From a virus, in IMG/VR virus record IMGVR_UViG_3300022700_000208, positions 1-64,000 of that record: a DNA stretch of 64,000 nt, one strand, 5' to 3'. The first letter of the stretch is position 1. Each line of letters begins with the position of its first letter. The notes beneath the pieces are model-generated. The model was not told where the DNA came from, searched no databases, and worked only from the letters and a program-made list of their open reading frames with translations. The position numbers and the translations under genes are program-made. Of the stretch, positions 1-52,639 are shown one piece after another.

Positions 1-2480
1 TCATACATCCAAATTGTATGGATTATCTTAACCTTCATATAAGAAGAAAACTTGGAATGATGATTGTAGATGAGATAGTGAATCCATTGTTTGAGATGAG
101 GATATTGAGTATCAATAACCTCTCTTAATTTTTTCACTCCTTGAAATTTAGCAGTTTCCCAATTAATACTTTTGGGTTTTTCTCCACTTTTAGGAGGACC
201 TTGAACTTCTTTTGGAAATTTAATATTGATCCAGCCAGCACCTTTGGTTTCACATAGTCCATTATTTTTTAAATAGCGCAGGCAAGTTCCAAGGTAGTCA
301 ATTCCTGTCTCACCTCTCATGTCAATCATGGCAACTTGACTCGGAAGAGTAAGCTTGTTTTTTACCATGGAGATCTGAGAGACAATCCCATTAACTTGTT
401 CATCCCCAGTTTTCTTGTTTATTTCTTTTATTTTTCCCGTGGCCTGAATTTTAGCTCTTACTGAAGAATGAAATTTAATTCCTCCACCGCCACTAGATTC
501 ATCACCTCCAACAGGAGATCCAATCTTTTTCCCAAGCTGGTTAACAAAAATCATACTGGAATTGGTTTTTCCGAGTTTGTTTACTATTCTTCTGAGAGCT
601 GCTCGTATTATTCTTGCTTTTTCAGCAATACCTCCAGAAAAATCACCATTTTCAAACTCATTTTTAGTTGGAGCCGCTGCAACAGTATCCCAGCAGGCAA
701 GCATTTTAATGCCTTTTTCTTCACATCTTTTCAAAGTTGACTCAATGATATCGAAACCATCTTCAACATTATCCACTTCTGAAATAATGAATTTGTCGAT
801 AGGAGCCCCAACATTGAAAGCTCTTGCTTTATCGAGAGCTGATTCAGTTTCAATCCAAAGAATAAGCCATCTATTATCATTTTTTGCTTGCCAATACCTA
901 GCAAATGCTTGAGTGGAAGCTAATGCTAATGTTGATTTTCCTTGGGATTCCCACCCCATAAATTCATAGATCTTACCCGAATTATGTATGATATTTCCAG
1001 CTTCGGTTAAAAAATTATGATATTTATCTACTGTAATATCATAAACAGGAATTTTTTCTTCATAGCTTATAGTCTTCACAGACTTCACTTTGTGATTAGT
1101 ACAGTATTTAAGATGATTATTATAAATACTTCTTTTCATTTTTCCTAAGAAAGCATTACATTTACCACAATGAGCTTCTATAATTTCATTGTTTTTCTTT
1201 TTCATTCTTCTTGAAACTATCTTTTTTACTTCTGGCTTTTGGAAATTATGTTTACCGATAGAGGATAGATACAATTCTCTTTCCCTTCGGAATTCAACCA
1301 TGTGATTTCTAAATTCTTCTTCAAGCCATTTATTTTTCATGTTTTTGGAAACAATATTCTTTTGTCTTTCTCTCATTTCTTTATATTCTGGAGAGTAATG
1401 TAGTTTATAATTAAACCTTCTAATATTATCTGAAGTTACTTCGGACATTAAATTTATAAACCACTGTTCCTTCCAAAGTCTTTTTAAATTTTTTGATGCC
1501 TTGTCTCTAAACTCTTTGCTATTGGTAACTTCCTTTAGGATTTTGGAAGTTAAATTAGACATTTTTCCCCTGTACTCGGGATCTTGCCAATTTTCATAAT
1601 TTCTTTTTGAAGTTAGGTTGGATTGCATTTTTCTGAATTCAGGATCTTGCCATAACTTCTTTAAGTTTTTAGAGGAAACTTTAGACATTAAGTCTATAAA
1701 CCATTTCTCTTGCCAGAGTTTCTTTAATCTTTCACTGGCATCTTTTGAATGTAACTCAAAATGTTCTTCCTTATCCATTATTTTAAGATTAGAAGGATCA
1801 TTATTATTTGGGTTAAAATCTATGTGATGGCAAACTTGTTTTCCTCTATACCCCCCTAAAACTTCTTTAGCTACTAACTGATGAACTAACTCTGATTTAC
1901 CAGTTTTATTGTTTAAAACACTTGGATATGTATTCCATCTTTTTGAAATATATCCAGAGTAAACTGGCATCAAGCTATCATTTTCTTTTAGATATTGAGC
2001 CTCCTTATAAGATCCATCTCTCATCATAAAACGATGGTTAGGAGTGCATCGTATGCTCTTATCATTGTCTAAGGTTATTTCTAATAGTTTATCAACCCAT
2101 CCTGTAATTTGAGCATTACTACCTTTAGCAGGTTTAATTTCTCCTTCAGGTGTTGAAGAATAAACCCAAAATTCTTTTTCATTAACTAATTCTTTTATTG
2201 GAATTAATCTTCCATCTAATAACGGAATTTTTGTATTTCCTTCAAGGCAATAAATACCTCCACCAAAAGGAATATCTAATGGAGGACAATCAAAAGTATA
2301 AATATCAGAAACATCAGATCCTAAAGTATCAACTACTGTCTTAAGCCTTTTATCTTCATTAGCAATTTCTTCAATAGAAAAATCTGAACTTGATGAAGGT
2401 TCTTCTTTGGCTTTGCTTTCTGTAGTCTTTGAAGTTTTTTTCTTGGTTGTTTTCTTTTTAGTGGCTTGTTTCTTGGCCAT
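1..2480 (-). CDS. recA: RecA/UvsX-like recombinase containing an intein; runs off the left edge
   Basis: Hand translation from ATG 2480 (SD AGGAG): LDIPFGGGIY|intein|SGKIYEFMGWESQGKST (Walker A), IETESALD, WDTVAA (Walker B), IFVNQL, GGGGIKFHSSVR, KNKL. Missing from the ORF track because no stop lies inside the window. Confidence 0.93.
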   Translation of the reverse strand, partial: MAKKQATKKKTTKKKTSKTTESKAKEEPSSSSDFSIEEIANEDKRLKTVVDTLGSDVSDIYTFDCPPLDIPFGGGIYCLEGNTKIPLLDGRLIPIKELVNEKEFWVYSSTPEGEIKPAKGSNAQITGWVDKLLEITLDNDKSIRCTPNHRFMMRDGSYKEAQYLKENDSLMPVYSGYISKRWNTYPSVLNNKTGKSELVHQLVAKEVLGGYRGKQVCHHIDFNPNNNDPSNLKIMDKEEHFELHSKDASERLKKLWQEKWFIDLMSKVSSKNLKKLWQDPEFRKMQSNLTSKRNYENWQDPEYRGKMSNLTSKILKEVTNSKEFRDKASKNLKRLWKEQWFINLMSEVTSDNIRRFNYKLHYSPEYKEMRERQKNIVSKNMKNKWLEEEFRNHMVEFRRERELYLSSIGKHNFQKPEVKKIVSRRMKKKNNEIIEAHCGKCNAFLGKMKRSIYNNHLKYCTNHKVKSVKTISYEEKIPVYDITVDKYHNFLTEAGNIIHNSGKIYEFMGWESQGKSTLALASTQAFARYWQAKNDNRWLILWIETESALDKARAFNVGAPIDKFIISEVDNVEDGFDIIESTLKRCEEKGIKMLACWDTVAAAPTKNEFENGDFSGGIAEKARIIRAALRRIVNKLGKTNSSMIFVNQLGKKIGSPVGGDESSGGGGIKFHSSVRAKIQATGKIKEINKKTGDEQVNGIVSQISMVKNKLTLPSQVAMIDMRGETGIDYLGTCLRYLKNNGLCETKGAGWINIKFPKEVQGPPKSGEKPKSINWETAKFQGVKKLREVIDTQYPHLKQWIHYLIYNHHSKFSSYMKVKIIHTIWMY
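981..2249 (-). mobile_element. Intein (423 aa) with HNH homing endonuclease in recA
   Basis: Starts CLEGNTKIPLLDG, block B CTPNHRF, HNH motif HHIDFNPNNNDPSNL, repeated KKLWQDPEFR-like helices, ends VYDITVDKYHNF...IIHN followed by Ser. Confidence 0.93.
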
Positions 2481-2838
2481 TTTCTCCTCCTGACAAAACA
2501 TTGATGAGGCCAGCTAGTGATTGATCCATAGGAAGTCCCTTATCGTTGCAAACAAAAAAATCAAATAAAGCTGAAAGAACAAATTTCAGATTAGAAAAGT
2601 TGATGTACATAACTCCATTTTCATCAACATAACTTGACTTAACTTTTGATACATAAAACAAAGTTTCATCCTCAATGTAAAAGTCTGAGGAAAATCCCTT
2701 TAGTTGGGGGTTTTTCCTCAAAACGTCTGAAAAGGAATAAAATTTAGGATCAAAACAAAGAACTCGGACATTATCCGATTTCATTATCTGCTTGGATGCG
2801 TTCTGAAGTCTGGCAACAGTTTCAGTATCAAACTTCAT
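2458..2838 (-). CDS. hypothetical protein
   Basis: 126 aa ORF tightly packed in the leftward operon. Confidence 0.7.
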   Translation of the reverse strand: MKFDTETVARLQNASKQIMKSDNVRVLCFDPKFYSFSDVLRKNPQLKGFSSDFYIEDETLFYVSKVKSSYVDENGVMYINFSNLKFVLSALFDFFVCNDKGLPMDQSLAGLINVLSGGENGQETSH

Positions 2839-4312: not shown

Positions 4313-4783
4313 TTAATCACTCAGCGCATCATACTTTGTATAAGAAAGAGCTGATTTATTGGCTTTAACCTTAATATAATCAAATGGAATAGCCGAAACT
4401 TGATCCACTTTAAGGTTTTCCCTCTCAAAGGATTTAAAAACATCTCGATTGGAAGAAAAATAATGATCTGTGATTCCGACAGATCCCCATTTTGGTTTTA
4501 CGACATACCGATAAGCAAAAACAGTCTCAACTACCTTTCTAGGACTGTATAGCCAAATGGATCTAAAGATGGAAGGATTAATATGCCCTGATCCATTTTC
4601 ATTTCTTAAATAAACTGGAATGTGCTTATTGTTTCCTTCTTCATCTGAGCAAACTGTCCATGTATTAGATCCATCTGTTATTTTATCTCCAATTAAGATC
4701 TCACTTCCAAAGATACATTTTGTGGAGATAAAGTTTTCCAGATTGACTAATTTTCCTGTGTGTTTTTCTTCTTTCCAACTCAT
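4313..4783 (-). CDS. hypothetical protein
   Basis: 156 aa ORF with SD GAGGT. Confidence 0.65.
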   Translation of the reverse strand: MSWKEEKHTGKLVNLENFISTKCIFGSEILIGDKITDGSNTWTVCSDEEGNNKHIPVYLRNENGSGHINPSIFRSIWLYSPRKVVETVFAYRYVVKPKWGSVGITDHYFSSNRDVFKSFERENLKVDQVSAIPFDYIKVKANKSALSYTKYDALSD

Positions 4784-12241: not shown

Positions 12242-12306
12242 AATGTACCTCCTTAGTGCCTATCCCTCTTTGGGGCTCATTCCCCTAGGGAGTCGGATAT
12301 GGGTTT

Positions 12307-12370
12307 ATGGCCTATCTCATCAGTGTCGGGAGGCCATCCCCGATCAGACGGGCATATTGCCCGTTTCGAT
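12307..12370 (-). ncRNA. Type II hammerhead ribozyme with pseudoknot
   Basis: AUC-GAAA-C-GGGCA(AUA)UGCCC-G-UC/cleavage-stem I-CUGAUGA-GAU; the stem I loop AUGGCCU pairs with the 3' AGGCCAU. Confidence 0.85.
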
Positions 12371-12664
12371 TTATTTCTTTTTGACTTTGGGAAACTCAAC
12401 CTTCGTCTCGTAGAGCAGTCCCTTGTCGATCAGCTTTTGCTCCCCAATTGCATTTGCAACGTCTTTCCAGTTGGCCAGTGTGGTTCTGTTTTGATTAACA
12501 ATCTTGAGTGAATAGTCCTTGGTTTCAGTGGCACCCATTTCTATGAGGTGCTTTTTAAGTTCATCTTTTTGCTTTTTGATCTCATTTTCCTGGTCAGTTA
12601 GTTCTTTGTATTTGGCTAGTTTTTGGTTTGGTGTGAGTTTGGAAAAGCTCATTTTATCCCCCAT
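12371..12664 (-). CDS. hypothetical protein
   Basis: 97 aa in operon. Confidence 0.65.
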   Translation of the reverse strand: MGDKMSFSKLTPNQKLAKYKELTDQENEIKKQKDELKKHLIEMGATETKDYSLKIVNQNRTTLANWKDVANAIGEQKLIDKGLLYETKVEFPKVKKK

Positions 12665-13536
12665 TAGGCTATCTGGTCGTTTTTAAGTTCAATTCCCTGC
12701 TCTTCTAGAATGTCTTGAATGGATTGGGATTGTTTTTTGGAAGAGTCGTAACGGAATTTGTGGTTTATTTGCTTTTCAGCTTCTAGATAGCGGTTAACAA
12801 GCTTGGGATTGTGTTGGGCAGCAATGGCAATTTCTTTCTTTGAGGAATAAATGCAGATAGCGCATGAAGCTCTTGATACTCCCAATGCATAGCAAGGGTG
12901 CTTTGGCATTTCATAGAAATTGTTTTCAGCCCAAACCTTGCCTTCAGTCCAGTCTACAATAGGACTGGCTTTAATCATCATAGTGCCTTTTCTCTTATAA
13001 ACCTTCTCATTAAAGACATGCTTTCTAGCGCGGCGAGTTGATTCTTCAGCGCGTTCTCCGCAAAGAACCAAGACGTTTCCCCCAAGTTGGGAGCAAAACT
13101 TATCGCAAGGCTGAGTCTTGACCTGAGCCGTACACCATTGCTGGTTAGGGCCAGGCCACTTCTTTTGCTTTTTCTCTCCAGTTTTGCGATCAACCTGACC
13201 AGCCAATAGAAGATCAAGAACGCCTTTCTCATCCTCACGTTTCACGATGTGGAGCTTTACCCCAAGATTTTCACATTGGGCTTTTACAGTAGGCAGTGTT
13301 TCGTCCCAATCGGTATCAAGTTCAGCATGGAGAGCTATGATGCGATCAGCACCAAAAGTTCGAGTGGCCCAACAAAGAAGAGCCCCTGAATCCTTCCCTC
13401 CAGAAGTAGAGACCACAATATGATCAAAAGAGCCTTCAGCATCCATTCGCTGGAGCCTGTTCCTTAAAGCCTGCCCTCTGTGGTTGATTTTAGTCTTGTT
13501 TGGTGTGTATGTATTCTTAGCCATTTTTACCCCCAA
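12664..13536 (-). CDS. PAPS reductase-family protein
   Basis: PP-loop STSGGKDS, WCTAQVK, GERAEESTRR, RASCAIC. Confidence 0.85.
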   Translation of the reverse strand: MGVKMAKNTYTPNKTKINHRGQALRNRLQRMDAEGSFDHIVVSTSGGKDSGALLCWATRTFGADRIIALHAELDTDWDETLPTVKAQCENLGVKLHIVKREDEKGVLDLLLAGQVDRKTGEKKQKKWPGPNQQWCTAQVKTQPCDKFCSQLGGNVLVLCGERAEESTRRARKHVFNEKVYKRKGTMMIKASPIVDWTEGKVWAENNFYEMPKHPCYALGVSRASCAICIYSSKKEIAIAAQHNPKLVNRYLEAEKQINHKFRYDSSKKQSQSIQDILEEQGIELKNDQIA

Positions 13537-13565
13537 GTTTTTAATAACCTTAACTATCTATATTC

Positions 13566-13594
13566 ATTCTACGTCCTAACTTAATGAAAAGCAA
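13566..13594 (-). promoter_or_regulatory. sigma70-type early promoter for the leftward operon
   Basis: TTGCTT-17 bp-TAGAAT. Confidence 0.7.
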
Positions 13595-13635
13595 GGAATT
13601 AATTATAATTAATTCTAAAATCCCACAAAATGAGG

Positions 13636-14348
13636 GATTTCAGTGACTTACCGCGTCTCAAATTATTAATAATTCGATTTTTGTGATGCTCTGCATGAGA
13701 GAAGATGTGTGATGGGAAGGATTACCTGGTAGCAGAGCCTGAAATTGCCGTCAATCACCAAGGCAATGAGAGCTTCTGTGAGCCCTACAGGGGCTATTAT
13801 GGTCAATCATAGGGACCTGAGCCCAAAAGCCAAACACAATCAAAATATGTGGCTCTCTGAGGCTTCTGGATATATCCCATGCCTGAGATATATCTCAAAC
13901 CGATTTGGGCATCCAATACAGCCGACACAGGGCTCCGACAGGGGGAGGAGGCCCCCGTAGTAGGGGCCTTTCCAAAACAAAGTGATTTCAGATACTTAAC
14001 TCGCTGTGGACCAGGTAAACAACCACAATATTAGCCGCTTTGTAAGTTACTGAAATCAGGGCTTGTTATTTCCGTGAGCGGCGTTTCAAGCCGTTCAAAT
14101 TGGGGGGGTTTCGACCTACGCGCTCTGTGTCACCAAAATTCCATAGAAATTCCAATAACTTAAATTATTTTTATTTAAGAAAAGAAGAGTTCAAAAAAGG
14201 CTCAAAAAAGGGCCAAAAAGCCTTCTGAAGCCACAAAATAAAATATGTTTTTGCTATATTCAGCGCATTAGACGCATAGTACCGAACAACGTGCTCACTT
14301 TGTAAGAAAATTTAAGACAGAAAATTTCTGAGAGAAATCAATGAGTTA
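13636..14348. repeat. Dispersed GATTTCAGnnACTTA (IHF-like) repeats in the non-coding divergence region
   Basis: Copies at 13636, 13984, 14043 (reverse), 14148, 14335. Confidence 0.6.
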
Positions 14349-14627
14349 TGATATTAACAAAAATTTAACTGAACACTAGGTCGGGTGCTGTCGTTAAAGA
14401 AAGAAAGTACCAAAGAAAGAAACCTCAATCGAATAATTGATCTAGCGATCAATTATATTGTTTACCCTTGATTGTTCATTCGCTTCGCTCATTCACAATC
14501 AAGTATATTTTTCTTAGCCCCTATATTCTTTTTTAAAAAGAAACACTGAGTCAGAAGTGATCAATACTATTAAAACTGAAGAAAAAATCAATCCAAACAA
14601 AATATAACACAAAGTATTATATGTGTA

Positions 14628-14661
14628 GGGGATCTGAGGTCTGAGAGGACCTCAGATCCCC
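14628..14661. repeat. Perfect 14-bp inverted repeat
   Basis: GGGGATCTGAGGTC-TGAGAG-GACCTCAGATCCCC. Confidence 0.85.
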
Positions 14662-14905
14662 AAACCAAGAATTTCACAAAAGTTACATAAGAATTTTACG
14701 TAATATTTTGTATATTCCTTCAGTAAATCCTCTTTTTTCTTCATCCCCAATAAATACGATGAATTATTTTGGGGGTGACACTATGCATAAAAATAATACC
14801 TGTTTACTTTTTGATTGGATTAATCTTGATCCTAGGGGTTTTTTAGTTTAAGCGCATGTTTACCCAGTTAATTGCTCTTTTTGTTAAGTTGCAGGAGGTT
14901 TTTTA

Positions 14906-15489: not shown

Positions 15490-15616
15490 GTTCTTATTTA
15501 AGACTATGTACAACCCAGGGGAAGATGCACCTCCTCAGTTTCAAACCGAAGGTGGAATTATATTCACTAAACAATATATCCCTATCTTACAAGAAAAGTT
15601 GGAATTGAAAAGATAG

Positions 15617-15958
15617 TTGATTGAGGGGTTTATGAGTCACTATAGCAATGATCCACAGAATGTGAGAGTTGATTTCTTTAAGCCATCGGGAAAGTGGTAT
15701 GCCACTGAGCAAGTAACAATGGTGGGTTGGAGGGGAGATGAAGTTCTCATTCATGATTCTTTAGTTGATGCTCTAGATAATTTGGAGAGAAAGGATGGAG
15801 GGCCTCTATTTAGGGGGATGCAAGTTATTTGCCTTGAGCCTTATCATGAGTTTTCTCATCCCATTTCAATAAAAGAATGGAATGGAAAAGAGGAGTGGTT
15901 AAAAGAGAAGGCTGAAATTAAAAGGAAAATTGGGATGGACCAGGGACTTGAACCCTAA
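15617..15958 (+). CDS. conserved phage hypothetical protein
   Basis: VRVDFFKPSGKWY motif; probable start ATG 15632. Confidence 0.7.
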   Translation: MIEGFMSHYSNDPQNVRVDFFKPSGKWYATEQVTMVGWRGDEVLIHDSLVDALDNLERKDGGPLFRGMQVICLEPYHEFSHPISIKEWNGKEEWLKEKAEIKRKIGMDQGLEP

Positions 15959-16018
15959 CCTGAAATATATTTCAAAAATTTCTTGATCTTGAAATATATT
16001 TAACCGATCCTGAATTCT

Positions 16019-16078
16019 ATGAAGTTTTTAAACCGAGCCCGCACAACCTGGACAGAGGGAGGCTACAGTATGATGTAG
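16019..16078 (+). CDS. Attenuator leader peptide 1 MKFLNRARTTWTEGGYSMM
   Basis: Codon run ACA ACC TGG ACA GAG GGA GGC matches the downstream Thr/Trp/Glu/Gly tRNAs; no SD, possibly leaderless. Confidence 0.8.
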   Translation: MKFLNRARTTWTEGGYSMM

Positions 16079-16148
16079 TTTGGGGCTTGGTGCGATCAAA
16101 ACCGAATTGAAGAAATAGAACCCAAGCCCAAAGAGCTTGGGTTTTTTA
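16033..16148 (+). promoter_or_regulatory. Transcription attenuator of tRNA operon 1
   Basis: Segment 1 CCGAGCCC (16033-40), segment 2 GGGCTTGG (16083-90), segment 3 CCAAGCCC (16122-29), segment 4 GCTTGGGTT plus U-tract. Confidence 0.85.
16119..16148 (+). terminator. Attenuator terminator 1
   Basis: AACCCAAGC-ccaaaga-GCTTGGGTT-TTTT, 5 nt before tRNA-Glu. Confidence 0.9.
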
Positions 16149-16152
16149 TTTT

Positions 16153-16228
16153 GCGGCTATCGTCTAATGGTTAAGGATACCAGACTTTCTATCTGGGGAT
16201 GGGGGTTCAAATCCCCCTGGCCGCGCCA
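16153..16228 (+). tRNA. tRNA-Glu(TTC)
   Basis: Cloverleaf, CCAGA-CTTTCTA-TCTGG, TTCAAAT, encoded CCA. Confidence 0.93.
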
Positions 16229-16231
16229 TAT

Positions 16232-16308
16232 CCGTTAGTAGCTCAATTGGCTAGAGCGCCTGACTTCCAATCAGGAGGCTGTGGGTTCGAGCCCCACCTA
16301 GCGGTCCA
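16232..16308 (+). tRNA. tRNA-Gly(TCC)
   Basis: CCTGA-CTTCCAA-TCAGG, ends TCCA. Confidence 0.93.
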
Positions 16309-16309
16309 T

Positions 16310-16383
16310 AGGAGGGTGATCTAATGGTAAGAGCACAGACTCCAAATCTGTGAATGTTGGTTCAAGTCCAGCCCTTCCTGCCA
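16310..16383 (+). tRNA. tRNA-Trp(CCA)
   Basis: ACAGA-CTCCAAA-TCTGT, ends GCCA. Confidence 0.93.
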
Positions 16384-16384
16384 T

Positions 16385-16461
16385 GCCTCTGTAGCTCAAT
16401 TGGCTAGAGCAGCGGTCTTGTAAACCGAAGGTTGGGTGTTCGAGTCACCCCAGGGGCTCCA
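16385..16461 (+). tRNA. tRNA-Thr(TGT)
   Basis: GCGGT-CTTGTAA-ACCGA, ends TCCA. Confidence 0.93.
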
Positions 16462-16565
16462 TTTTTCAAAAAATGCAGACTAGAATTGGGGATTTTTGAT
16501 TTTCAAATTTCTACTTGAGATTTTTTAAGGCTTGTCCGATTATAGAAGGGACTTAAGAGGAGATT

Positions 16566-16643
16566 ATGCAAACACTACGCATAGCCATGATTTTTAATGT
16601 GGATAGAGCGGATAGAGTCCTAGGTAAGGAGGGCATGGCGTAG
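16566..16643 (+). CDS. Attenuator leader peptide 2 MQTLRIAMIFNVDRADRVLGKEGMA
   Basis: SD AGAGGAG; codons ATA, ATG, ATT, TTT, AAT, GAT, AGA, GAT, AGA match all downstream tRNA anticodons. Confidence 0.88.
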   Translation: MQTLRIAMIFNVDRADRVLGKEGMA

Positions 16644-16709
16644 GTTTGTATTAAGTTACAGTTTGATTTTGGAAACCTAACCCAGGCCCTAAAAAGCCTG
16701 GGTTTTTTT
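16569..16709 (+). promoter_or_regulatory. Transcription attenuator of tRNA operon 2
   Basis: Antiterminator 16630-47 pairs 16673-90 (15/18 bp); protector 16569-89 pairs 16634-48. Confidence 0.88.
16679..16709 (+). terminator. Attenuator terminator 2
   Basis: AACCCAGGC-cctaaaaa-GCCTGGGTT-TTTTT, directly before the tRNA. Confidence 0.9.
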
Positions 16710-16711
16710 AT

Positions 16712-16787
16712 TCCTGGGTATCTTAATTGGCAAAGAACCCGCCTCATAAGCGGGGGTATGCTGGTTCAAGTCCAGCCCCAGGAACCA
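16712..16787 (+). tRNA. tRNA-CAT (Ile2 or Met)
   Basis: CCCGC-CTCATAA-GCGGG, ends ACCA. Confidence 0.88.
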
Positions 16788-16788
16788 T

Positions 16789-16860
16789 AGCTGGATAGCT
16801 CAAGGGTAGAGCATCTGACCGATAATCAGAAGGTTGCAGGTTCAAATCCTGCTCCAGCTA
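16789..16860 (+). tRNA. tRNA-Ile(GAT)
   Basis: TCTGA-CCGATAA-TCAGA (C33); followed by TCA rather than CCA. Confidence 0.88.
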
Positions 16861-16901
16861 TCATTTTAAAAGGAGAATTATTTATAATTAAAAAGTTATA
16901 T

Positions 16902-16977
16902 TCAGGGGTAGTTCAATTGGAAGAACGCGTGACTGTTAATCACGTAGTTGCTGGTTCGAGTCCAGCCCTCTGAGCCA
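16902..16977 (+). tRNA. tRNA-Asn(GTT)
   Basis: CGTGA-CTGTTAA-TCACG, ends GCCA. Confidence 0.93.
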
Positions 16978-16979
16978 AT

Positions 16980-17053
16980 TGCGGGATAGTGTAAAGGCAA
17001 CATGCAGGTCTCATAAGCCTGAGCTGGGTGTTCGAGTCACCCTCCCGCAACCA
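16980..17053 (+). tRNA. tRNA-Met(CAT), acceptor stem resembling fMet
   Basis: TGCGGGA/TCCCGCA acceptor; CAGGT-CTCATAA-GCCTG. Confidence 0.88.
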
Positions 17054-17055
17054 AT

Positions 17056-17132
17056 CTGAGAGTAGTTCAATTGGAGAGAACATTGCCCTTCTAAGGCAAA
17101 TGCTGAAGGTTCGAGTCCTTCCTCTCAGGCCA
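17056..17132 (+). tRNA. tRNA-Arg(TCT)
   Basis: TTGCC-CTTCTAA-GGCAA, ends GCCA. Confidence 0.93.
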
Positions 17133-17133
17133 T

Positions 17134-17209
17134 GCAGGGATAGCTCAGATGGTAGAGCACTGGATTGAAAATCCAGGTGTCAGTGGTTCAATTCCACTTC
17201 CCTGCACCA
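17134..17209 (+). tRNA. tRNA-Phe(GAA)
   Basis: CTGGA-TTGAAAA-TCCAG, ends ACCA. Confidence 0.93.
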
Positions 17210-17213
17210 ATTG

Positions 17214-17288
17214 GGGGCTGTGATGTAATGGCTAACATATCGGACTGTCTATCCGAAACTAGGGGTTCGATTCCCCTCAGCCCCGCCA
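17214..17288 (+). tRNA. tRNA-Asp(GTC)
   Basis: TCGGA-CTGTCTA-TCCGA, ends GCCA. Confidence 0.93.
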
Positions 17289-17447
17289 TCTTTGCCCCAA
17301 AGTTGCCCCATTCTTGCCCCAATTTCTTCCCTATTCCTGGAGTTGCCTACTGGAAAATTTCCAGAAGGTAACTTGATTGTATTATGCATTGCATATATCT
17401 TTGAAAAATATACTTGACGAAAACCTGGGCCTTGCATACATTGAAAA

Positions 17448-17556
17448 TCTATTGGCTACAGGGCCAATATCAAAAACAGAGCATGGAGCTTTGGTTCGGA
17501 GCCTTAGCAAAATGTTCTAGTTTTTGGAGCCAGGTATCTATCCTGGCTATTTTTTT
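17448..17556 (+). ncRNA. Candidate ~105-nt structured small RNA
   Basis: Promoter TTGACG-17-TACATT (17414-42), two hairpins, terminator AGCCAGG/CCTGGCT plus T-tract. Confidence 0.55.
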
Positions 17557-17618
17557 GCCTTCCTTTGACGCTTTGCATCCTTACAACTAGCCCTTTTTTA
17601 AAAATTTTTCGGGTTTTT

Positions 17619-17661
17619 TTGAGAACTAGCTCGGGTTTTATCGTTATGGGATAGTGAAGGG
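17619..17661 (+). promoter_or_regulatory. Conserved phage promoter motif, copy 3 (upstream of sbcD)
   Basis: TTGAGA-17-CGTTAT then GGGATAGTGAAGGG. Confidence 0.7.
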
Positions 17662-17686
17662 GAAGTACATCTTGAGAGGAAACAAC

Positions 17687-18727
17687 ATGGAGATAAACAA
17701 CAGGATTGGCATTTTCACGGACCAGCATTTAAGAAGCACTGGATCATTTCCACCTTTCAATAAGCTTTCCGAGTCAGGTCTTTCCAAGGAACTCGATAAC
17801 ATCATCAGAGGTTTTTACTTTGTTGCTGACCAAATAAGATCTTATAAGCCCAGGGCTGTATTCTCTTTGGGGGATGCCTTTCACAACCCTGAGGTGATAG
17901 ATGTCCCAACTCTTGAGGGAGCTTCAAGGGCCTTTGGGGTTGTTAAGAAGGCTTGTGATGAAGTAGGGGCTGATTTTTACATACTGGTTGGCAACCATGA
18001 TGTGGTCTCAGAGAATCCAACTCTTATCACTTCTGTTTCAGTTCTTGAGGGGTTTGGGCAAGTAATTAAAGAGCCCTACTTTATCGACATTGATGAGTTT
18101 ACTGTCTCAATGGTTCCTTATTCATCTAATCCCTCAAAGATGTATTCTCAGCTCAAGGAAGCTGAGGTTCAGTCAGATCTTATATTAACTCATATTGATG
18201 TAGCTGGATGCAGGTATGAAAACAATCATCTTTCTGAATCAGAGATAGATCCCACTTTTAAGGTGCCTGTTATTTCGGGGGATATTCACTTTAGTCAGCA
18301 TGTAGGAAGCGTTATATATCCAGGCTCTCTTGTACAAAACAAATTCACTAGATCTGATCTCAGTGGGATTGGTGGGGCTGCTTTCTATGATCTTGAAACA
18401 AAGGAATATCAGCTTGAGAGAAATATTTATTCAAAGCATTATGTCAAAGCCCATTCCATAGAGGAAGCCAAGAAGCATGATCCCAATCAAGTTATTATTC
18501 AACTTGTTACAGATGTTCCCAAGGAAGAGGCAGAAATTGAGCTTGAAGACTATGAATTTAATTATCTTCCTGCTCCAAAAGTTGATGATAATCTTGAAGT
18601 TGAGTATGAGAATGTTGGGATTGAATCTCCCGAAGTAGTCTTGAGAACTTATATCAATCAAGACCGTCCTAGTGCCCTTAAAAATTTTGATGAGACTTTG
18701 AAAAGTAGGAGTGAATCTAATGCATAA
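17687..18727 (+). CDS. sbcD: Mre11/SbcD-like nuclease (gp47-like)
   Basis: Metallophosphoesterase motifs DQH, GDAFH, GNHD, SGDIH, YPGS. Confidence 0.9.
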   Translation: MEINNRIGIFTDQHLRSTGSFPPFNKLSESGLSKELDNIIRGFYFVADQIRSYKPRAVFSLGDAFHNPEVIDVPTLEGASRAFGVVKKACDEVGADFYILVGNHDVVSENPTLITSVSVLEGFGQVIKEPYFIDIDEFTVSMVPYSSNPSKMYSQLKEAEVQSDLILTHIDVAGCRYENNHLSESEIDPTFKVPVISGDIHFSQHVGSVIYPGSLVQNKFTRSDLSGIGGAAFYDLETKEYQLERNIYSKHYVKAHSIEEAKKHDPNQVIIQLVTDVPKEEAEIELEDYEFNYLPAPKVDDNLEVEYENVGIESPEVVLRTYINQDRPSALKNFDETLKSRSESNA

Positions 18728-33974: not shown

Positions 33975-36542
33975 TTGGCATCTAAGAGTAACTGGCAATG
34001 GCAAAAAATGGAAAAACGAGATTCGTTCGATATAATAAGGAAGTCTCTAGCCAAGAGAAGGCTATTAGATTTTACCCAGCACACAAAGCCAAATTACAAA
34101 GCAAATTGGCACCATAAACTGATATGTGACAAGCTTGATAAGTTTATAGAAGGTAAGATCAAAAGACTGATGATCCTAATGCCTCCTAGGCACGGTAAAC
34201 AAGTTTCTTTTGATACTCCTGTTTTTACTCCTTCGGGTTGGACAATCCATGGAGATCTTCAAGTTGGTGATGAGGTGTTTGGCCCTGATGGGAATCCTAC
34301 TAAAGTGATAGCTTTAAGTGAGGAGTCTTATCAAGATATTGAGGTAGAATTATCTAATGGTCAGATTATTGAGTGCCATGAAAATCATGAGTGGTCCTTT
34401 TATGATAGGTCTCGTAGGGTTTGGAGAACTAAAGAGACAAATTGGTTTTTAAATAGGAAAGTTGTAAGTTCAGGAAGATGTATATTTCAACTTCCTAATA
34501 TCAATCCTCTTTATTTTGCTGAAAAAAATCTTGAGGTTGATCCTTATTTTCTTGGAGTGTGGTTAGGAGATGGAACATCAATTAAGCCTACTCTGAATTT
34601 GTGCTCTGATGATGAGGGTTATATATTATCTGGAATCCCCTATAATTTTAGCTCTAGGGCTGTCCATAAAGATACAAAGGTCCCAAGTATAAATTATTAT
34701 GGGGAAGTCAAAGATAATATTGAAAAATTAGGTCTTTTCGGGAATAAGCATATTCCAAAAGATTATTTATACTCATCTTTAGAACAGAGAGTTCAACTTT
34801 TGGCAGGTCTTATTGATTCAGATGGGCATGTTGAAAAAGAAGGAAGAGTTAGGTTTGTTAATACAAATAAGGATTTGATTGATGGAGTTTATGAGCTTCT
34901 CAGAACACTCGGACAAAGACCTTATCTTACTTCTCAGGAAGCTCATAGCAGTACAACTCTTCCTATAAATTCTGACAAAAAATGTTATGCAGTAGGTTTT
35001 CAGCCTACAATTGATATACCTACTAGGGTTCCAAGAAAAAAGATAAAGAGGATTGTAACTCAGAGAAGAGTTGGGATTAAAGATGTAAGGAGAGTTGATA
35101 AAAAGACTAAAGGAAATTGCATTCAAGTTGATAGGGAGGATGGTCTTTATTTAGTTGGGGAGAGTCTTATCCCCACACACAATTCAGAATTAGTTAGTAG
35201 GAGACTTCCTGCTTACATATTTGGGAAAAATCCAGATGCTCAGGTGATCTCAGCCACGTATGGAGCTGAGCTATCACAGAGATTGAATAGGGATGTTCAG
35301 AGGATTATTGATTCTGATCCTTATAGAGATTTGTTCCCAGAAACACAGCTTTCTTCCAAGAATGTAAAGACAACCTCAAAGATGAGTTATTTAAGAAACT
35401 CAGATATCTTTGAGATAGTAGGAAGAAAGGGAGTTTATCAGTGCGCTGGAGTTGGAGGCGCATTGACTGGTATGGGAGCCAATTATGTGTTGATTGATGA
35501 TCCCTTTAAGAACCAGGAAGAGGCAGACTCCCCGACGATAAGAGAAAAAGTTTGGGATTTTTATTCCTCTGTTCTTTATACCAGGCTTGAAACCCAGCTC
35601 AGTGATGGAAGCGTAGTCAATAGTGATGGGGGAATTCTTCTTACTACAACCAGATGGCATGAGGATGATTTAGCTGGAAGGCTAATCACTCAAATGCATG
35701 AAGATCCTGAGAATGCTGATCAATGGGAGATCATCAATCTCCCAGCAATTATTGAAACTCAGGAGGAGGAAGAAAATTCTATTGATCCCAGGGTAATGGG
35801 AGAGGCTCTTTGGCCTGATAAATTTGATGAGAAAAAGCTTCACGTTATTAAGTCCACTCTTGGTTCCAGAAAGTGGGCTGCTCTTTATGAGGGAAGACCT
35901 GCTCCTGATAAGGGAGACATTGTAGAAAGAGAGTGGTGGCAATACTATACAGATCTTCCTGAAGAGCTTGATTTCAAGCTTATTTCTGTGGACTGTGCTT
36001 TTAAGGGAACCAAGAAATCAGACTTTGTAGCTATACAGGTCTGGGGCAAAAAAGGAGTTCACAAATATCTGATCCATCAGGTTCGAGCCAAGATGGGTTT
36101 CAATGCAACTGTGGAGGCTATCAGGCAAGTTAAATACAAATATCCTGATGCTATGGAAGTTCTTATTGAGGAAAAAGCCAACGGGGCGGCTGTTATAGAA
36201 AGTCTTAAGAGTGAGATTGAGGGAGTAACTGCCTTCAATCCTAAAGATTCTAAAGAGTCCAGGGCCAAGGCTAATGCTGTGGCTCCCCAGATTGAGGCTG
36301 GAAATGTTCATATTCCCGATCCCTCAGTTGCTTCTTGGGTTGGTGATTATGTTGAAGAGTGGGCTGTGTTCCCGAACAGTCAGAATGATGATCAGGTGGA
36401 TGCCACATCTCAAGCTCTTATCAAGATGCATCAGACAGCCTATGAATGGGTTGATGTGGTTGATCATCTTGAGCAGGGAAAAGGCATTGAAGGTCTTCCT
36501 CCAGAAGTGGCTGAGCAACTTTGGCCTAATCATGCTGGATAA
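33975..36542 (+). CDS. terL: Terminase large subunit containing an intein
   Basis: MPPRHGK|intein|SEL, LIDDPFK, TRWHEDDLAGRL, SVDCAFK, IEEKANG, DDQVDA. Confidence 0.95.
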   Translation: MASKSNWQWQKMEKRDSFDIIRKSLAKRRLLDFTQHTKPNYKANWHHKLICDKLDKFIEGKIKRLMILMPPRHGKQVSFDTPVFTPSGWTIHGDLQVGDEVFGPDGNPTKVIALSEESYQDIEVELSNGQIIECHENHEWSFYDRSRRVWRTKETNWFLNRKVVSSGRCIFQLPNINPLYFAEKNLEVDPYFLGVWLGDGTSIKPTLNLCSDDEGYILSGIPYNFSSRAVHKDTKVPSINYYGEVKDNIEKLGLFGNKHIPKDYLYSSLEQRVQLLAGLIDSDGHVEKEGRVRFVNTNKDLIDGVYELLRTLGQRPYLTSQEAHSSTTLPINSDKKCYAVGFQPTIDIPTRVPRKKIKRIVTQRRVGIKDVRRVDKKTKGNCIQVDREDGLYLVGESLIPTHNSELVSRRLPAYIFGKNPDAQVISATYGAELSQRLNRDVQRIIDSDPYRDLFPETQLSSKNVKTTSKMSYLRNSDIFEIVGRKGVYQCAGVGGALTGMGANYVLIDDPFKNQEEADSPTIREKVWDFYSSVLYTRLETQLSDGSVVNSDGGILLTTTRWHEDDLAGRLITQMHEDPENADQWEIINLPAIIETQEEEENSIDPRVMGEALWPDKFDEKKLHVIKSTLGSRKWAALYEGRPAPDKGDIVEREWWQYYTDLPEELDFKLISVDCAFKGTKKSDFVAIQVWGKKGVHKYLIHQVRAKMGFNATVEAIRQVKYKYPDAMEVLIEEKANGAAVIESLKSEIEGVTAFNPKDSKESRAKANAVAPQIEAGNVHIPDPSVASWVGDYVEEWAVFPNSQNDDQVDATSQALIKMHQTAYEWVDVVDHLEQGKGIEGLPPEVAEQLWPNHAG
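34200..35183 (+). mobile_element. Class 3-type intein (328 aa) with LAGLIDADG endonuclease in the terL Walker A
   Basis: Begins with Gln; WCT triad (HENHEW, GNCIQV, PTHN); LGVWLGDG and LAGLIDSDG. Confidence 0.88.
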
Positions 36543-43583: not shown

Positions 43584-46430
43584 ATGAGTCGAGCAAAGTC
43601 ACTCCTGAATACATTCAATGAAGCCAGAATTGGTGACGATAAAACTCAGCATAATGATCGGTTTGCTGTCCTTGGGGGAGGTAATGCCTATCTTCCAACA
43701 GGAAAAAGGCAGACAGCCGAGAAGTTAACTGCTGGGGCTTACGTTCCTAAAATGAGCCCTCAAGGTGTTGTGTTTGAAAAGGCTCAGATCAACACTGATG
43801 AGATCCTTCGCTTTGAGGATGAAAGACAAAAGAAGGTTGTCAAAAGAGTAGAGAAGTTTTGGGAGCAGGGCCAACGCTATAATCAGTTTGGCTTTACTCA
43901 TTCCTTCGGTCTTCTCATGGAAGGTCCCCCAGGCAGTGGAAAATGTCTGGGTAGAGGGACTCCTGTTCTCATGTACGATGGATCTACCAAGAAAGTAGAG
44001 GATGTAGTTGTAGGGGATAAATTGATGGGAGATGATTCTACTCCTAGAACTGTTAAATCAACTACTAGTGGATATGAGCAGATGTACAGGGTTGTTCCTG
44101 TAAAAGGTGATCCTTATGTAGTTAATGAATCTCATATCCTTAGCCTTAAGATGTCCTGCGCAGCAGGAGGAAAAGAAAAAGGTGAGAAGGTAGATATCTC
44201 TGTAAGAGAGTATATGGAAAGAAGTAATCATTTTAAGCATTATGCTAAAGGATATCGAGTAGGAGTCGACTTTGAAGAAAAAGAGGTTCCTCTAGATCCT
44301 TATTATCTTGGGATATGGCTAGGAGATGGAAACAATAAGGATCAGAGTATTTCCAACCCAGAGGAAGAAATTCTTGAGTATCTTTATTCTTTGGGTGAAG
44401 AAAGAGGGCTTCATGTATATGCTGATACTCAAGAAGGAAAATGTCCTTTAATAAAGCTAGTGAAAAAAGAAGGATTATATAATAACCTTCTTGATTCTTT
44501 GAGAGAACTTGAGCTTATTAACAATAAGCATATCCCCCATATTTATAAAGCCAATTCAAAAGAGAATAGACTTCAGCTTTTGGCTGGTTTATTGGACACA
44601 GATGGTTATTATTGTAATGGTTATTATGAAATAATGAGCAATAACTCAGTCTTGAAGGATGATATTCTTTATCTTGCAAAATCTCTTGGTTTTGCTGCCT
44701 ACTATAAAGAAAAAGAGGCTAAGTTAGAAAATTGGGATGAGCCAAGGACCTATTATAGGATATCTATTTCAGGGCATGTTGATGAGATTCCATGTAAAGT
44801 GGAAAGGAAGCAAGCAGAGCCAAGAAAACAAAAGAAAGATGTTCTTTCTACGGGAATCACTTTAGAGAAGTTGGAAGTTGATGAGTATTTTGGTTTTGAG
44901 ATTGATGGTAATAGGAGATTTCTCCTGGGGGATTTTACTGTTACTCACAATACCGTGATAGTAAAACAAGTTCTTGAGGATGCTATCAATCAAGATCATA
45001 TTGCTCTCATTTGCAGGAATGTGGATGATTTGGCTGAAGGTCTTAATGCTCTAAGAGAGGTTGAGCCTGATCGCAAGATCCTTTGTGTGATGGAAGATAT
45101 TGAAAACCTCATCAAGTTTGGGGATCAATCTCTCATTCAGCTCATGGATGGGGACAATAAGCAAGAGGGTGTGTTCTACCTGGGAACTACAAACCATCCT
45201 GAGAAGATCCATCCCCGTGTTAAAAGAAAAGGCAGGTTCTCAGAGACCATTCATGTTCCGTTTCCTCCCAAAGAGGGAAGACAAGCCTATCTCAAGAAAA
45301 AGCTTGGCCAGCATGAGGATGCCAAGGAAATCAATCGCATTGTGAAAGCCACAGAGGGCCTTAGTTTTGCCCACCTCAGGGACTACATCATTGGGACCTA
45401 TTGTGAGGAGAGAAACTCGGATGAGGTTCTCAGCGAAATTAAGGACGTGTCAGTGGAGGAGCTTAAATCCCAGGGCCTTACCTATGATGAGTTTAAAGAA
45501 AAGCTTGAGGAGGCTCTTGGAGTCCAGAGCACCGCTTCATATAACCAGTCCTTGAATGAGGATACAGTCCGTACTCCTAGCGATAAAGCCAAGAGCAAAT
45601 CTCAGCGCCGCCGAATGGAGAGAATGAAGAGCAAATATAAGAAGCAAAAGAGCGAGTCCAGGGCTTCTAAGCTCTTAGAGGAGATGGATGATTCTGGGTT
45701 CAGTCTGATTGATCCTGAAGAGATCAAAAAGGAATTCAGGCAGAAGATCAAGAACTTTGGCATTGAGGGAGTCAATGTTGAGGATGTCACTGTAGACATG
45801 GAAAATGATATCATTGTCAATTTCTCTGATGATGAGGGAGATGAACTCCTGGCCATTTTCCAACACAATGAAGAGGAAGCCTGGGTTCTTATTGTCGATG
45901 ATGAGGAGGAAGCTGAAAATGAAGAGGGAGAAGCCATTATTGTGGATCTTAGTCCTCTTCCATTTGCCCTTAGGGATACCCCAATCGGTAAATATTTAGA
46001 GCTTGCCACTCTTGAATGGATGAATAAGTCCACTCTTGTTTCCATCCTAAGAGCTGGGGAGATCGGATATGATAAGCAGATCAAAGACTATAGCAATAGC
46101 TATGATGCTTATGGGAACCGAGTTGTAGCTCCAGCCGAAGCCAAAGTCAGTGAGGAAGATCTTAAGAAACATCTTCAGGAAAGTGGTGTTGATGAGCTTA
46201 AGAGAACAGTTGTCAGAGGAGGAAAGAGAGTCAAACTCCCTGTGGTGATAAAGAAGAAAAAGAAAAAGCTCACTGGTAAACAAAAGGCAGGCATCAGAAA
46301 AGGTGCAAGGAAAAGAAAAGCCAAGAAGGCTCAGATCCAGAGGAAGAGAAAGAAATCCCTGAAGAAAAGAAAGCAAATGGGCCTTAAAAAGGGAGGTCTT
46401 GGGACTCGAAGAAAGCTCAAAGGAAGATAA
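43584..46430 (+). CDS. AAA+ ATPase with intein, fused to a gp68-like prohead core domain; carries the MSKA leader
   Basis: GPPGSGK|intein|T, MEDIE, GTTNHPE, RKGRF; basic tail QRKRKKSLKKRKQMGL. Confidence 0.85.
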   Translation: MSRAKSLLNTFNEARIGDDKTQHNDRFAVLGGGNAYLPTGKRQTAEKLTAGAYVPKMSPQGVVFEKAQINTDEILRFEDERQKKVVKRVEKFWEQGQRYNQFGFTHSFGLLMEGPPGSGKCLGRGTPVLMYDGSTKKVEDVVVGDKLMGDDSTPRTVKSTTSGYEQMYRVVPVKGDPYVVNESHILSLKMSCAAGGKEKGEKVDISVREYMERSNHFKHYAKGYRVGVDFEEKEVPLDPYYLGIWLGDGNNKDQSISNPEEEILEYLYSLGEERGLHVYADTQEGKCPLIKLVKKEGLYNNLLDSLRELELINNKHIPHIYKANSKENRLQLLAGLLDTDGYYCNGYYEIMSNNSVLKDDILYLAKSLGFAAYYKEKEAKLENWDEPRTYYRISISGHVDEIPCKVERKQAEPRKQKKDVLSTGITLEKLEVDEYFGFEIDGNRRFLLGDFTVTHNTVIVKQVLEDAINQDHIALICRNVDDLAEGLNALREVEPDRKILCVMEDIENLIKFGDQSLIQLMDGDNKQEGVFYLGTTNHPEKIHPRVKRKGRFSETIHVPFPPKEGRQAYLKKKLGQHEDAKEINRIVKATEGLSFAHLRDYIIGTYCEERNSDEVLSEIKDVSVEELKSQGLTYDEFKEKLEEALGVQSTASYNQSLNEDTVRTPSDKAKSKSQRRRMERMKSKYKKQKSESRASKLLEEMDDSGFSLIDPEEIKKEFRQKIKNFGIEGVNVEDVTVDMENDIIVNFSDDEGDELLAIFQHNEEEAWVLIVDDEEEAENEEGEAIIVDLSPLPFALRDTPIGKYLELATLEWMNKSTLVSILRAGEIGYDKQIKDYSNSYDAYGNRVVAPAEAKVSEEDLKKHLQESGVDELKRTVVRGGKRVKLPVVIKKKKKKLTGKQKAGIRKGARKRKAKKAQIQRKRKKSLKKRKQMGLKKGGLGTRRKLKGR
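43944..44951 (+). mobile_element. Intein (336 aa) with LAGLIDADG endonuclease in the AAA Walker A
   Basis: CLGRGT start, VNESH, LGIWLGDG, LAGLLDTDG, VTHN followed by Thr. Confidence 0.93.
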
Positions 46431-46881: not shown

Positions 46882-47214
46882 ATGTCAAAAGCAAAAGAAT
46901 TGAAAGAGAAATTCGATAAAACCAAACAAGGTCAGTCTGTATCTGAGCAAGGGACCAGCCCTAATAATGTTGCTAAGACAAGAGATCAAGTTGCAAAGAG
47001 ATTAGGTGCAGCTCAGAAAATTATGTCTAAGCCTGATCCTGAAAATTTAAAACAGATTGTACAGGGACATCTAGATGCTTTGGATGCTGTTAGGTCAGGT
47101 CTTGTTTCCATGTTTAAAAAAGAAGGAAATAAAGACATGCAAAAGGTAATAGATAAAGTTTCTGACTCAGAAAAAGAACTAAGAGACTTGGTTAAAAAAG
47201 AGGATTTTTTCTAA
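46882..47214 (+). CDS. protein, MSKA-leader family
   Basis: MSKAKELKEKF...VSE. Confidence 0.8.
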   Translation: MSKAKELKEKFDKTKQGQSVSEQGTSPNNVAKTRDQVAKRLGAAQKIMSKPDPENLKQIVQGHLDALDAVRSGLVSMFKKEGNKDMQKVIDKVSDSEKELRDLVKKEDFF

Positions 47215-47215
47215 T

Positions 47216-47446
47216 ATGTCCAAGGCAAAAAACTTGCTTACTTTGGTCTCAGAGGCCAGTAAGCCAAAAATTGAAAAGCTCAAGTCCATTTGGGAGGGCT
47301 TAAGCTCTAGACAGAAAAAAGAGTTAATGGCCCTTTATGCTTTCTCCGAGTTCAATGAAGAGTTTGATCACCTATCTTCTTATCAGAAGGAAGTGATGAT
47401 CAATAACCTAGAAGTAGCAGAATCATTTTCATCGAAGGAACACTAA
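47216..47446 (+). CDS. protein, MSKA-leader family
   Basis: MSKAKNLLTLVSE-A. Confidence 0.75.
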   Translation: MSKAKNLLTLVSEASKPKIEKLKSIWEGLSSRQKKELMALYAFSEFNEEFDHLSSYQKEVMINNLEVAESFSSKEH

Positions 47447-49427: not shown

Positions 49428-49462
49428 ATTCCCGTTTAACTGTCTCAAAAATAGATTCAACT

Positions 49463-49497
49463 CGTAAAAATTTTTATTTCCGTTTTCCTAATAGAGG
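49463..49497 (+). promoter_or_regulatory. Putative late promoter, copy 2
   Basis: CGTAAAAATTTTTATTTCCGTTTTCCTAATAGAGG. Confidence 0.7.
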
Positions 49498-49540
49498 CAT
49501 CTGTCTTTTTTATTCGAGCAAGGTCTAAGGAGAAAAGCGC

Positions 49541-51025: not shown

Positions 51026-51114
51026 AGGATTTCTTAGTTAGTTTGTGGTCTGGACTTCAGGGGCAAACTACGGGGAAACAAAAACAAACCAAACTGACTA
51101 AGGAGATTGCGAAA

Positions 51115-52548: not shown

Positions 52549-52572
52549 GGCATTCTTAGTATAAACCAATAA

Positions 52573-52607
52573 TAATGGAGGGGAGATATCTCCCCTCCAT
52601 TTCTTTG
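52573..52607 (+). terminator. Intrinsic terminator after MCP
   Basis: AATGGAGGGGAGA-TA-TCTCCCCTCCATT then TCTTT. Confidence 0.8.
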
Positions 52608-52639
52608 ACTGAGCATCTAATAAACCTGGAGATTTTATT

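Follow-up and report, generated by a model that had tools for sequence, protein, structure and literature searches.

What governs the expression of transfer RNA (tRNA) genes carried by phages? Such genes are usually viewed as constitutive helpers of codon usage or, more recently, as decoys against tRNA-cleaving defences. The question is raised by a locus near position 16,000 of the IMG/VR virus record IMGVR_UViG_3300022700_000208, of which positions 1 to 64,000 (the window; G+C 39.9%) form the first part of an 81,645-bp record. On the plus strand of this locus, a short leader open reading frame (ORF) contains a run of Thr, Trp, Glu and Gly codons and is followed by an intrinsic terminator that abuts four tRNA genes, those for Glu, Gly, Trp and Thr. 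Three mutually exclusive RNA pairings connect the ORF to the terminator, and a sister module of the same logic lies downstream. The element is probably a ribosome-mediated leader-peptide attenuator, tuned to the very tRNAs of the four-gene phage operon whose transcription it gates.

Leader, predicted RNA switch and terminator ahead of four tRNA genes

The four tRNA genes (16153..16461) score 55-69 bits against the tRNA model of Rfam and are separated by spacers of 1-3 nucleotides (nt) (Table 1). The U-tract of the terminator ends at 16152 and tRNA-Glu starts at 16153, which leaves no room for a promoter between the hairpin and the first tRNA gene; thus, any precursor that includes the four tRNAs must read through the terminator. 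A strict scan for perfect-stem terminators across the 81.6-kb record returned four sites only (16119, 16679, 17528 and a bidirectional site at 52574/52601), two of which abut the two tRNA blocks of the region while a third closes the tRNA region. The terminator starts 158 nt past the stop of the nearest upstream coding sequence (CDS; ORF 15617-15958), with promoter-like sequence between the two. A plain gene-end terminator was rejected on the basis of this distance and of the exact 8-nt competitor that lies upstream of the hairpin.

Table 1. Coordinates of the leader region, the adjoining tRNA genes and the sister module (window positions; SD, Shine-Dalgarno; MFE, minimum free energy)
Feature	Position	Strand	Description
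Alternative promoter TTCAAA-18-TATATT	15971-16000	+	listed by consensus scan; overlaps P1
Putative promoter P1	15983..16011	+	-35 TTGATC (15983-88), 17-nt spacer, -10 GATCCT (16006-11)
Leader ORF	16019..16078	+	19 codons plus stop; peptide MKFLNRARTTWTEGGYSMM
Segment 1 (protector)	16032..16040	+	inside ORF, codons 5-8; CCGAGCCC = 16033-40; pairs with 16083-91 in MFE and centroid folds
Candidate control codons	16043..16063	+	ACA ACC TGG ACA GAG GGA GGC (T T W T E G G), codons 9-15
SD-like motif GAGGGAGG inside leader	16055..16062	+	7 nt 5' of ATG 16070 (ATG ATG TAG); overlaps E-G-G codons
Inner hairpin within 1:2 loop	16060..16081	+	covers last codons of leader and stop; from MFE fold
Segment 2	16083..16091	+	GGGCTTGG = 16083-90; 4 nt 3' of stop; partner is segment 1 or segment 3
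Intrinsic terminator	16117..16152	+	11-bp stem (16117-27 with 16135-45), 7-nt loop, then TTTTTTATTTT up to tRNA 5' end
Segment 3	16122..16129	+	CCAAGCCC; 6 nt of terminator 5' arm plus 2 loop nt; predicted antiterminator partner
tRNA-Glu(UUC)	16153-16228	+	ARAGORN, Rfam
tRNA-Gly(UCC)	16232-16308	+	ARAGORN, Rfam
tRNA-Trp(CCA)	16310-16383	+	ARAGORN, Rfam
tRNA-Thr(UGU)	16385-16461	+	ARAGORN, Rfam
Sister module	16515..17288	+	TTGAGA-17-GATTAT, SD, leader ORF 16566-16643, terminator 16679-16704, 7 tRNAs; ~550 nt downstream

The identity of the genes behind the terminator gives the codon run of the leader its meaning. The leader ORF extends from ATG 16019 to TAG 16076-78 and is preceded by an in-frame stop (TAA at 16001). 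A preliminary description of the locus had placed the ORF, the codon run, the segments and a promoter pattern at coordinates that are all correct on re-reading of the sequence; its claim that codons 9-15 specify solely Thr, Trp, Glu and Gly is borne out, and its remark that no SD sequence precedes ATG 16019 also holds. That description did not name the genes downstream of the terminator as tRNA genes. The run TTWTEGG is the sole window of its length restricted to these four residues among the 113,206 stop-free seven-codon windows in the six frames of the whole 81,645-bp record. Seven-codon windows with at least five strictly cognate codons that span all four tRNAs are slightly more frequent (8/113,206). 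Taken alone and ahead of the Trp and Thr tRNAs, TTWT is still rare without the E-G-G codons, as windows of four codons that contain both T and W and nothing else occur 7 times among 131,297.

The pairings that connect the codon run to the terminator rest on segment 2, which had been described as lying just past the stop and as able to pair either with segment 1 or with the 5' arm of the terminator. Both points are confirmed. Segment 3 (CCAAGCCC) is the exact reverse complement of segment 2 (GGGCTTGG), and the pairing of segment 2 with segment 1 (CCGAGCCC) includes one G-U pair. The MFE and centroid folds contain a 9-bp 1:2 stem (16032-40 with 16083-91) that encloses two small hairpins, and the duplex energies are -18.6 kcal/mol for 1:2 and -16.7 kcal/mol for 2:3. 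The switch was examined by cutting the nascent transcript just 5' of segment 4, masking the bases covered by a ribosome and folding the remainder. The unmasked transcript adopts 1:2 (-27.5 kcal/mol), which leaves segment 3 free. With a mask to 16064 or 16073, equivalent to a ribosome with its A site on the control codons, an 8-bp 2:3 helix forms (-13.6 and -13.2 kcal/mol, respectively). With a mask to 16091, as for a ribosome at the stop, segment 3 is unpaired and the terminator has no competitor. The masked, truncated folds thus give the three states expected of the 1:2 / 2:3 / 3:4 switch that had been proposed, and the computationally testable parts of that proposal hold. Among 5000 dinucleotide shuffles of the 95 nt upstream, 67 contained a perfect complement of at least 8 nt to the terminator 5' arm; equally good 1:2 and x:3 duplexes were seen in 45 and 41 of 2000 shuffles, respectively. 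When the pairings are taken together with the codon run, the placement of the stop and segment 2 and the adjoining matching tRNA genes, chance is not a plausible explanation.

The 132-nt RNA folds at -42.6 kcal/mol (z -3.70), and 0 of 200 shuffles fold as well. A fold of such significant stability would also suit a small structured RNA gene of ~130 nt, extending from P1 to the terminator, with a trans-acting, processing or stability role and with the tRNAs made by read-through. Stable RNAs are encoded beside the tRNA genes of T4 and provide an analogy. The promoter-like sequence and terminator of the element fit this explanation, and terminated attenuator RNAs can act in trans according to one account of rnTrpL (PMC6614838). 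A small RNA gene leaves the codon run and its match to the tRNAs unexplained, has no Rfam family at threshold and is compatible with attenuation rather than exclusive of it; as the explanation of the locus it is very improbable.

Known RNA families do not account for the element. No Rfam family reaches the gathering threshold there, and matches at E up to 5 within 15900-16720 are noise-level only. Trp_leader (RF00513) was rejected at 16.5 bits against a 41-bit cut-off (E 2.1, 16082-16150), as was a T-box, which gave no match at the gathering threshold nor at E up to 5 within 15900-16720. A pseudo-tRNA and a known small RNA were likewise rejected, with no Rfam family for the element.

The sister module and similar designs in other phages

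The sister module repeats the arrangement ahead of a different set of tRNAs, in the order CAU, Ile-GAU, Asn-GUU, CAU, Arg-UCU, Phe-GAA and Asp-GUC. Its TTGAGA-17-GATTAT sequence is listed by the consensus promoter scan, and its leader (leader 2) has a strong SD. The 25 codons of leader 2 hold ATA ATG ATT TTT AAT GAT AGA GAT AGA, which include one codon for each downstream tRNA, all seven (ATA ATG ATT TTT AAT GAT AGA). Terminator 2 stops ~7 nt ahead of the first tRNA and is near-identical to the terminator of the first module, the difference being one compensatory A-T to G-C pair. Masked folds of module 2, in which the coordinates are one base off, contain an antiterminator whose formation would be prevented by a ribosome at the stop. 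The two leaders differ in step with their tRNA sets: the best seven-residue windows match their own set at 7/7 and 6/7 positions versus 4/7 and 3/7 for the swapped set. Judged from their sequences, both CAU tRNAs lack the hallmarks of an initiator; thus, one of the two is plausibly a lysidine tRNA-Ile that reads ATA.

The same design, in which promoter-like sequence, a matched short ORF and a terminator precede a tRNA block, is found in phage phiCbK (JX100813) and in one unrelated IMG/VR phage. For phiCbK, GenBank annotates rho-independent terminators ahead of three tRNA groups, and small ORFs lie before those terminators (positions 1082-1167, 2541-2770 and 4342-4503 of the region 47000-53000). 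The group of Phe, Val, Ile, Ile, Val, Gln and Gln tRNAs is preceded by TTGACA-17-TAGGGT, 7 nt, an ATG, the ORF and the annotated terminator. This ORF (32 codons, 4342-4440 of the region) reads MSKTYRQFVRQIQVVRNIR..., and within QFVRQIQVVRNI the residues F, V, I and Q account for 9 of 12. The annotated gp083, which is rich in Ser, Leu, Pro and Lys, precedes a group that includes Pro, Pro, ..., Lys, Lys, Leu, Leu, Leu, Ser and Ser tRNAs. The leader ahead of the Glu and Asp tRNAs matches weakly, as its 20 residues include two E and one D. The terms 'attenuat' and 'leader' occur 0 times in the phiCbK genome paper. Several tRNA-like stretches between the annotated tRNAs of phiCbK appear to be unannotated.

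The IMG/VR phage was found by a degenerate search with the terminator sequence, which returned 11 loci. Eight of these (L019-L024, L027 and L029) are near-identical sequences of a single phage; its terminator has 89% identity to that of the present element and lies 14 nt before a tRNA-Phe that heads a 22-tRNA array. An upstream 31-codon ORF samples 17 amino acids, and an antiterminator is possible. In L024 (5445-5764), a TTGAAA-17-TATAAT-like promoter and an A-rich leader without an SD are seen, and the other seven contigs show the same. This phage has no protein similarity to the present phage in the DNA compared, and the remaining gaps of its tRNA array contain CDSs and tRNA-like remnants with no further leader modules. 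The modules of the other phages differ from the present element in their tRNA sets and leaders, and homology is demonstrable for the sister module alone.

Proposed mechanism, alternatives and known systems

Under the proposed mechanism, transcription would begin at or just upstream of ATG 16019. If the leader were left untranslated, segments 1 and 2 would pair, segment 3 would be free and the terminator would form, so that polymerase would halt 1-5 nt before tRNA-Glu. Smooth translation would bring the ribosome to TAG 16076, where it would cover segment 2, and the terminator would form as well. Were Thr-, Trp-, Glu- or Gly-tRNA scarce, the ribosome would linger on ACA ACC TGG ACA (GAG GGA GGC) and hide segment 1, and the free segment 2 would pair with segment 3 before segment 4 is made. 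The 2:3 pairing would allow polymerase to read through into tRNA-Glu, Gly, Trp and Thr. As the tRNA product would relieve the stall, the outcome would be negative-feedback control of supply for exactly these tRNAs. The signal sensed is more likely to be decoding by the downstream-encoded tRNAs than amino-acid supply.

The start of the transcript is predicted from sequence patterns. P1 would place +1 at or beside the A of ATG 16019 and yield a leaderless mRNA, which is a guess; by our own count, 7 of 12 positions of TTGATC-17-GATCCT match the sigma-70 consensus. The overlapping TTCAAA-18-TATATT would instead leave an untranslated leader of 11-12 nt. The pattern TTGA-N17-CCGATNNT is found as an exact match solely at P1 and at 16515 within the window, and matches with one mismatch (6 found versus 3.8 expected) are no more numerous than by chance; since the pattern was derived from these two sites, it provides no independent promoter evidence. 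Enrichment of TTTCAAANNTTTCT was looked for, and the motif is not enriched. Parallel layouts that speak for P1 are seen in the sister module, which shares TTGA-N17-CCGATNNT, and in the phiCbK leader, where the -10 hexamer lies 7 nt ahead of the ATG. By analogy with phiCbK, a leaderless or near-leaderless mRNA is plausible.

A number of observations weigh against codon-tuned attenuation. Every masked state of the full-length RNA folds into the terminator (~-16 kcal/mol); thus, the choice between folds must be kinetic, as it is in the trp attenuator. Each pairing taken singly is only modestly unusual (p ~0.013 to 0.023). When the A site is on the last three control codons, the ribosome footprint no longer covers segment 1, and thus the Thr and Trp codons are the best placed for control. 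The codons strictly cognate to the downstream anticodons are 5 of the 7 in the run because ACC and GGC are outside the standard wobble of UGU and UCC, and the whole leader ORF holds 5 codons cognate to its own tRNA block and 4 to the other block. The GAG GGA GGC codons double as GAGGGAGG, and the E-G-G match could therefore be a by-product of this motif rather than independent evidence. An SD-like 4-mer accompanies 44 of 57 long ORFs, yet ATG 16019 is preceded by no SD, and TTGATC-17-GATCCT is not among the sites of the consensus promoter scan.

To these points is added the outcome of the homologue searches, in which no homologue of the leader element was found among IMG/VR, metagenome loci and phage records. 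A single-protein scan of IMG/VR with the neighbouring SbcD-like gene gave none. An alignment of 8 SbcD relatives led to 2 viral and 9 metagenome loci, of which 0/11 have a tRNA by ARAGORN; the two viral records have no tRNA by Rfam. The tail sheath has one IMG/VR relative (52% identity), on a 12.8-kb contig with no tRNA. The exact pattern of segments 2, 3 and 4 has 0 matches in IMG/VR. When 15600-17700 was compared by blastn with 50,697 phage records, the 30 matches listed each spanned 6-7% of the query, mostly at annotated tRNA genes, and left the leader uncovered; 80% query coverage was reached by none of the records. The Rhizobium phage RHph_TM39, the closest cultured phage by its sheath (53%), has 20 tRNAs in 15 groups. 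Visual inspection of the 300 nt ahead of every group, with two of the stretches N-masked, revealed neither an abutting terminator nor a matched small ORF. Thus, the device is recurrent but not universal. Further cultured sheath relatives have 1 tRNA (GR11A) or 0 (Peetri).

The SD-like motif within the leader bears on a different explanation, in which the element is a ribosome-dependent attenuator without codon specificity. Such an attenuator would report a general slowdown of elongation or the coupling of transcription to translation, and the codon match would be partial or secondary; in a variant, ribosomes that load at the GAGGGAGG-N7-AUG AUG UAG mini-ORF would park on segment 2 and enforce termination. 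The motif is strong and ideally spaced before ATG 16070, whereas ATG 16019 has no such motif, and GGAGG is common to both leaders at 9-13 nt ahead of their stop codons (16055-16078; 16626-16643), in leader 2 at 16628 and 9 nt 5' of the stop. Its role might be to hold the terminating ribosome in place over segment 2 or to provide an internal loading site. Segment 1 would also be hidden by a ribosome held up at any early codon, and the near-equal count of codons for the two tRNA blocks across the whole ORF points in the same direction. Set against this are the uniqueness of the T/W/E/G run in the genome, the rarity of TTWT-type windows and the finding that leader 2 and the phiCbK leader vary in step with their tRNA sets. 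In addition, ATG 16070 is in the loop of the inner hairpin and the SD-like motif is partly paired in its stem. Overall, attenuation without codon specificity is unlikely.

The modest p-values of the single pairings, the lack of an SD and the lack of homologues would also be expected of a constitutive, leaky intrinsic terminator or insulator, in which the ORF and pairings are fortuitous and a fixed level of read-through sets the output of tRNA. Consistent with this explanation, the other 3 of the 11 IMG/VR loci (L025, L026 and L028) carry a near-identical hairpin as a plain gene-end terminator. A leaky terminator, however, demands that the unique codon run coincide with a stop 4 nt from segment 2, with an exact antiterminator of 8 nt and with a protector within the ORF, and that such coincidences recur in a second module of the same genome and in other phages. 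The 158 nt and promoter-like sequence that separate the hairpin from the nearest upstream CDS also argue against it, and this explanation is quite unlikely.

Codon-tuned attenuation has its closest mechanistic parallel in the enterobacterial leader-peptide attenuators of amino-acid operons, including thrL (Thr/Ile), ilvL (Ile/Val/Leu) and the archetype trpL. The present element shares with these a short leader ORF, a codon run for multiple amino acids, a stop just before segment 2 and the 1:2 protector, 2:3 antiterminator and 3:4 terminator pairings. The distances are similar, with an ORF of ~60 nt and a terminator ~100-130 nt from the start, and the geometry resembles that of trpL; here, the stop occupies nt 58-60, segment 2 spans 65-73 and segment 3 spans 104-111, and the U-tract begins at 124. 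Unlike thrL, ilvL and trpL, the element is phage-encoded, has no SD (possibly being leaderless) and has no sequence homology to them, the regulated genes encode tRNAs rather than biosynthetic enzymes, and the molecule sensed would be the operon's own product. As the targets are four tRNA genes and not genes of biosynthesis or aminoacyl-tRNA synthetases, the element departs from the classical attenuator family in one of its defining features. General accounts of leader-peptide attenuators are available (e.g., PMC1183508).

Other systems are similar in part. T-boxes link tRNA status to terminator read-through through an antiterminator but bind uncharged tRNA directly, without a ribosome or ORF, and control genes of aminoacyl-tRNA synthetases, biosynthesis and transport. 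The nearest published phenomenon found is the trn operon of Anabaena sp. PCC 7120, a long tRNA array described as induced under translational stress (PMC8421152; PMC10272220). As described there, this accessory tRNA block is off unless translation is impaired, as is proposed for the present block; it differs in being cellular rather than phage-encoded and in its control, which a 2023 abstract assigns to the transcriptional repressor TrcR. The terms 'leader peptide', 'attenuat' and 'terminator' occur 0 times in the main texts of the two papers. Leaderless polycysteine short ORFs are described as Cys-responsive attenuators in mycobacteria (bioRxiv 10.1101/834739) and, on that description, provide precedent for a leaderless sensing leader, although they sense an amino acid and regulate protein-coding operons. 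A full-text literature search, with most subscription journals outside its coverage, returned no account of leader-peptide attenuation of tRNA genes.

If codon-tuned attenuation is correct, the phage gauges how fast specific codons are decoded and produces tRNAs as they are needed, and the trp/his/thr mechanism is re-used on a new class of target in which it senses the operon's own product. In records such as that of phiCbK, the 'terminators' annotated ahead of phage tRNA arrays and the small ORFs left unannotated there would then be regulatory parts, and the modules would provide compact, codon-addressable sensors for synthetic biology. A broader and more tentative proposal is that phages carry codon-addressed 'tRNA gauges', in which each leader samples the codons that its tRNAs read and a stall switches on the replacements. 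The trigger of such gauges would be the loss of specific host tRNAs by host shut-off, codon-usage mismatch or anticodon-nuclease defences. If true, these would be the first case of tRNA genes under attenuation control: a modular device, recurrent in phage lineages that are unrelated, whose product would feed back directly on how well individual codons can be decoded.

Phage and genomic setting

The window encodes a tail sheath, a large terminase, a RecA-like recombinase, an AAA ATPase and SbcC-like and SbcD-like proteins, as assigned with PHROGs and Pfam. Among cultured phages, sheath identity peaks at 53%, in Rhizobium phages of the Kleczkowskaviridae; the phage is an uncultured myovirus, and the collections searched contain no close relative of it. 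Among the genes that neighbour the tRNA region, PHROGs and Pfam revealed nothing linked to tRNA biology. A PAPS-reductase-like protein (phrog_424, E 4.6e-40) is encoded at 12664-13536 on the minus strand, adjoining the tRNA region on the opposite strand.

Additional observations concern mobile and RNA elements elsewhere in the window. Intein and homing-endonuclease domains (Intein_splicing, LAGLIDADG_3, Hom_end and Hom_end_hint) are found in three essential-looking genes, those of the RecA-like recombinase, large terminase and AAA ATPase, at 3-2501 (-), 33975-36542 (+) and 43584-46430 (+). A match to the Hammerhead type II ribozyme at 12306-12371 on the minus strand (39.8 bits versus the Rfam gathering score of 37) sits between two minus-strand early genes. 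The ~1.4-kb stretch at 13537-14905 has no ORF of at least 80 amino acids and marks the point at which genes switch from the minus to the plus strand; it may contain divergent early promoters, tiny genes or RNAs.

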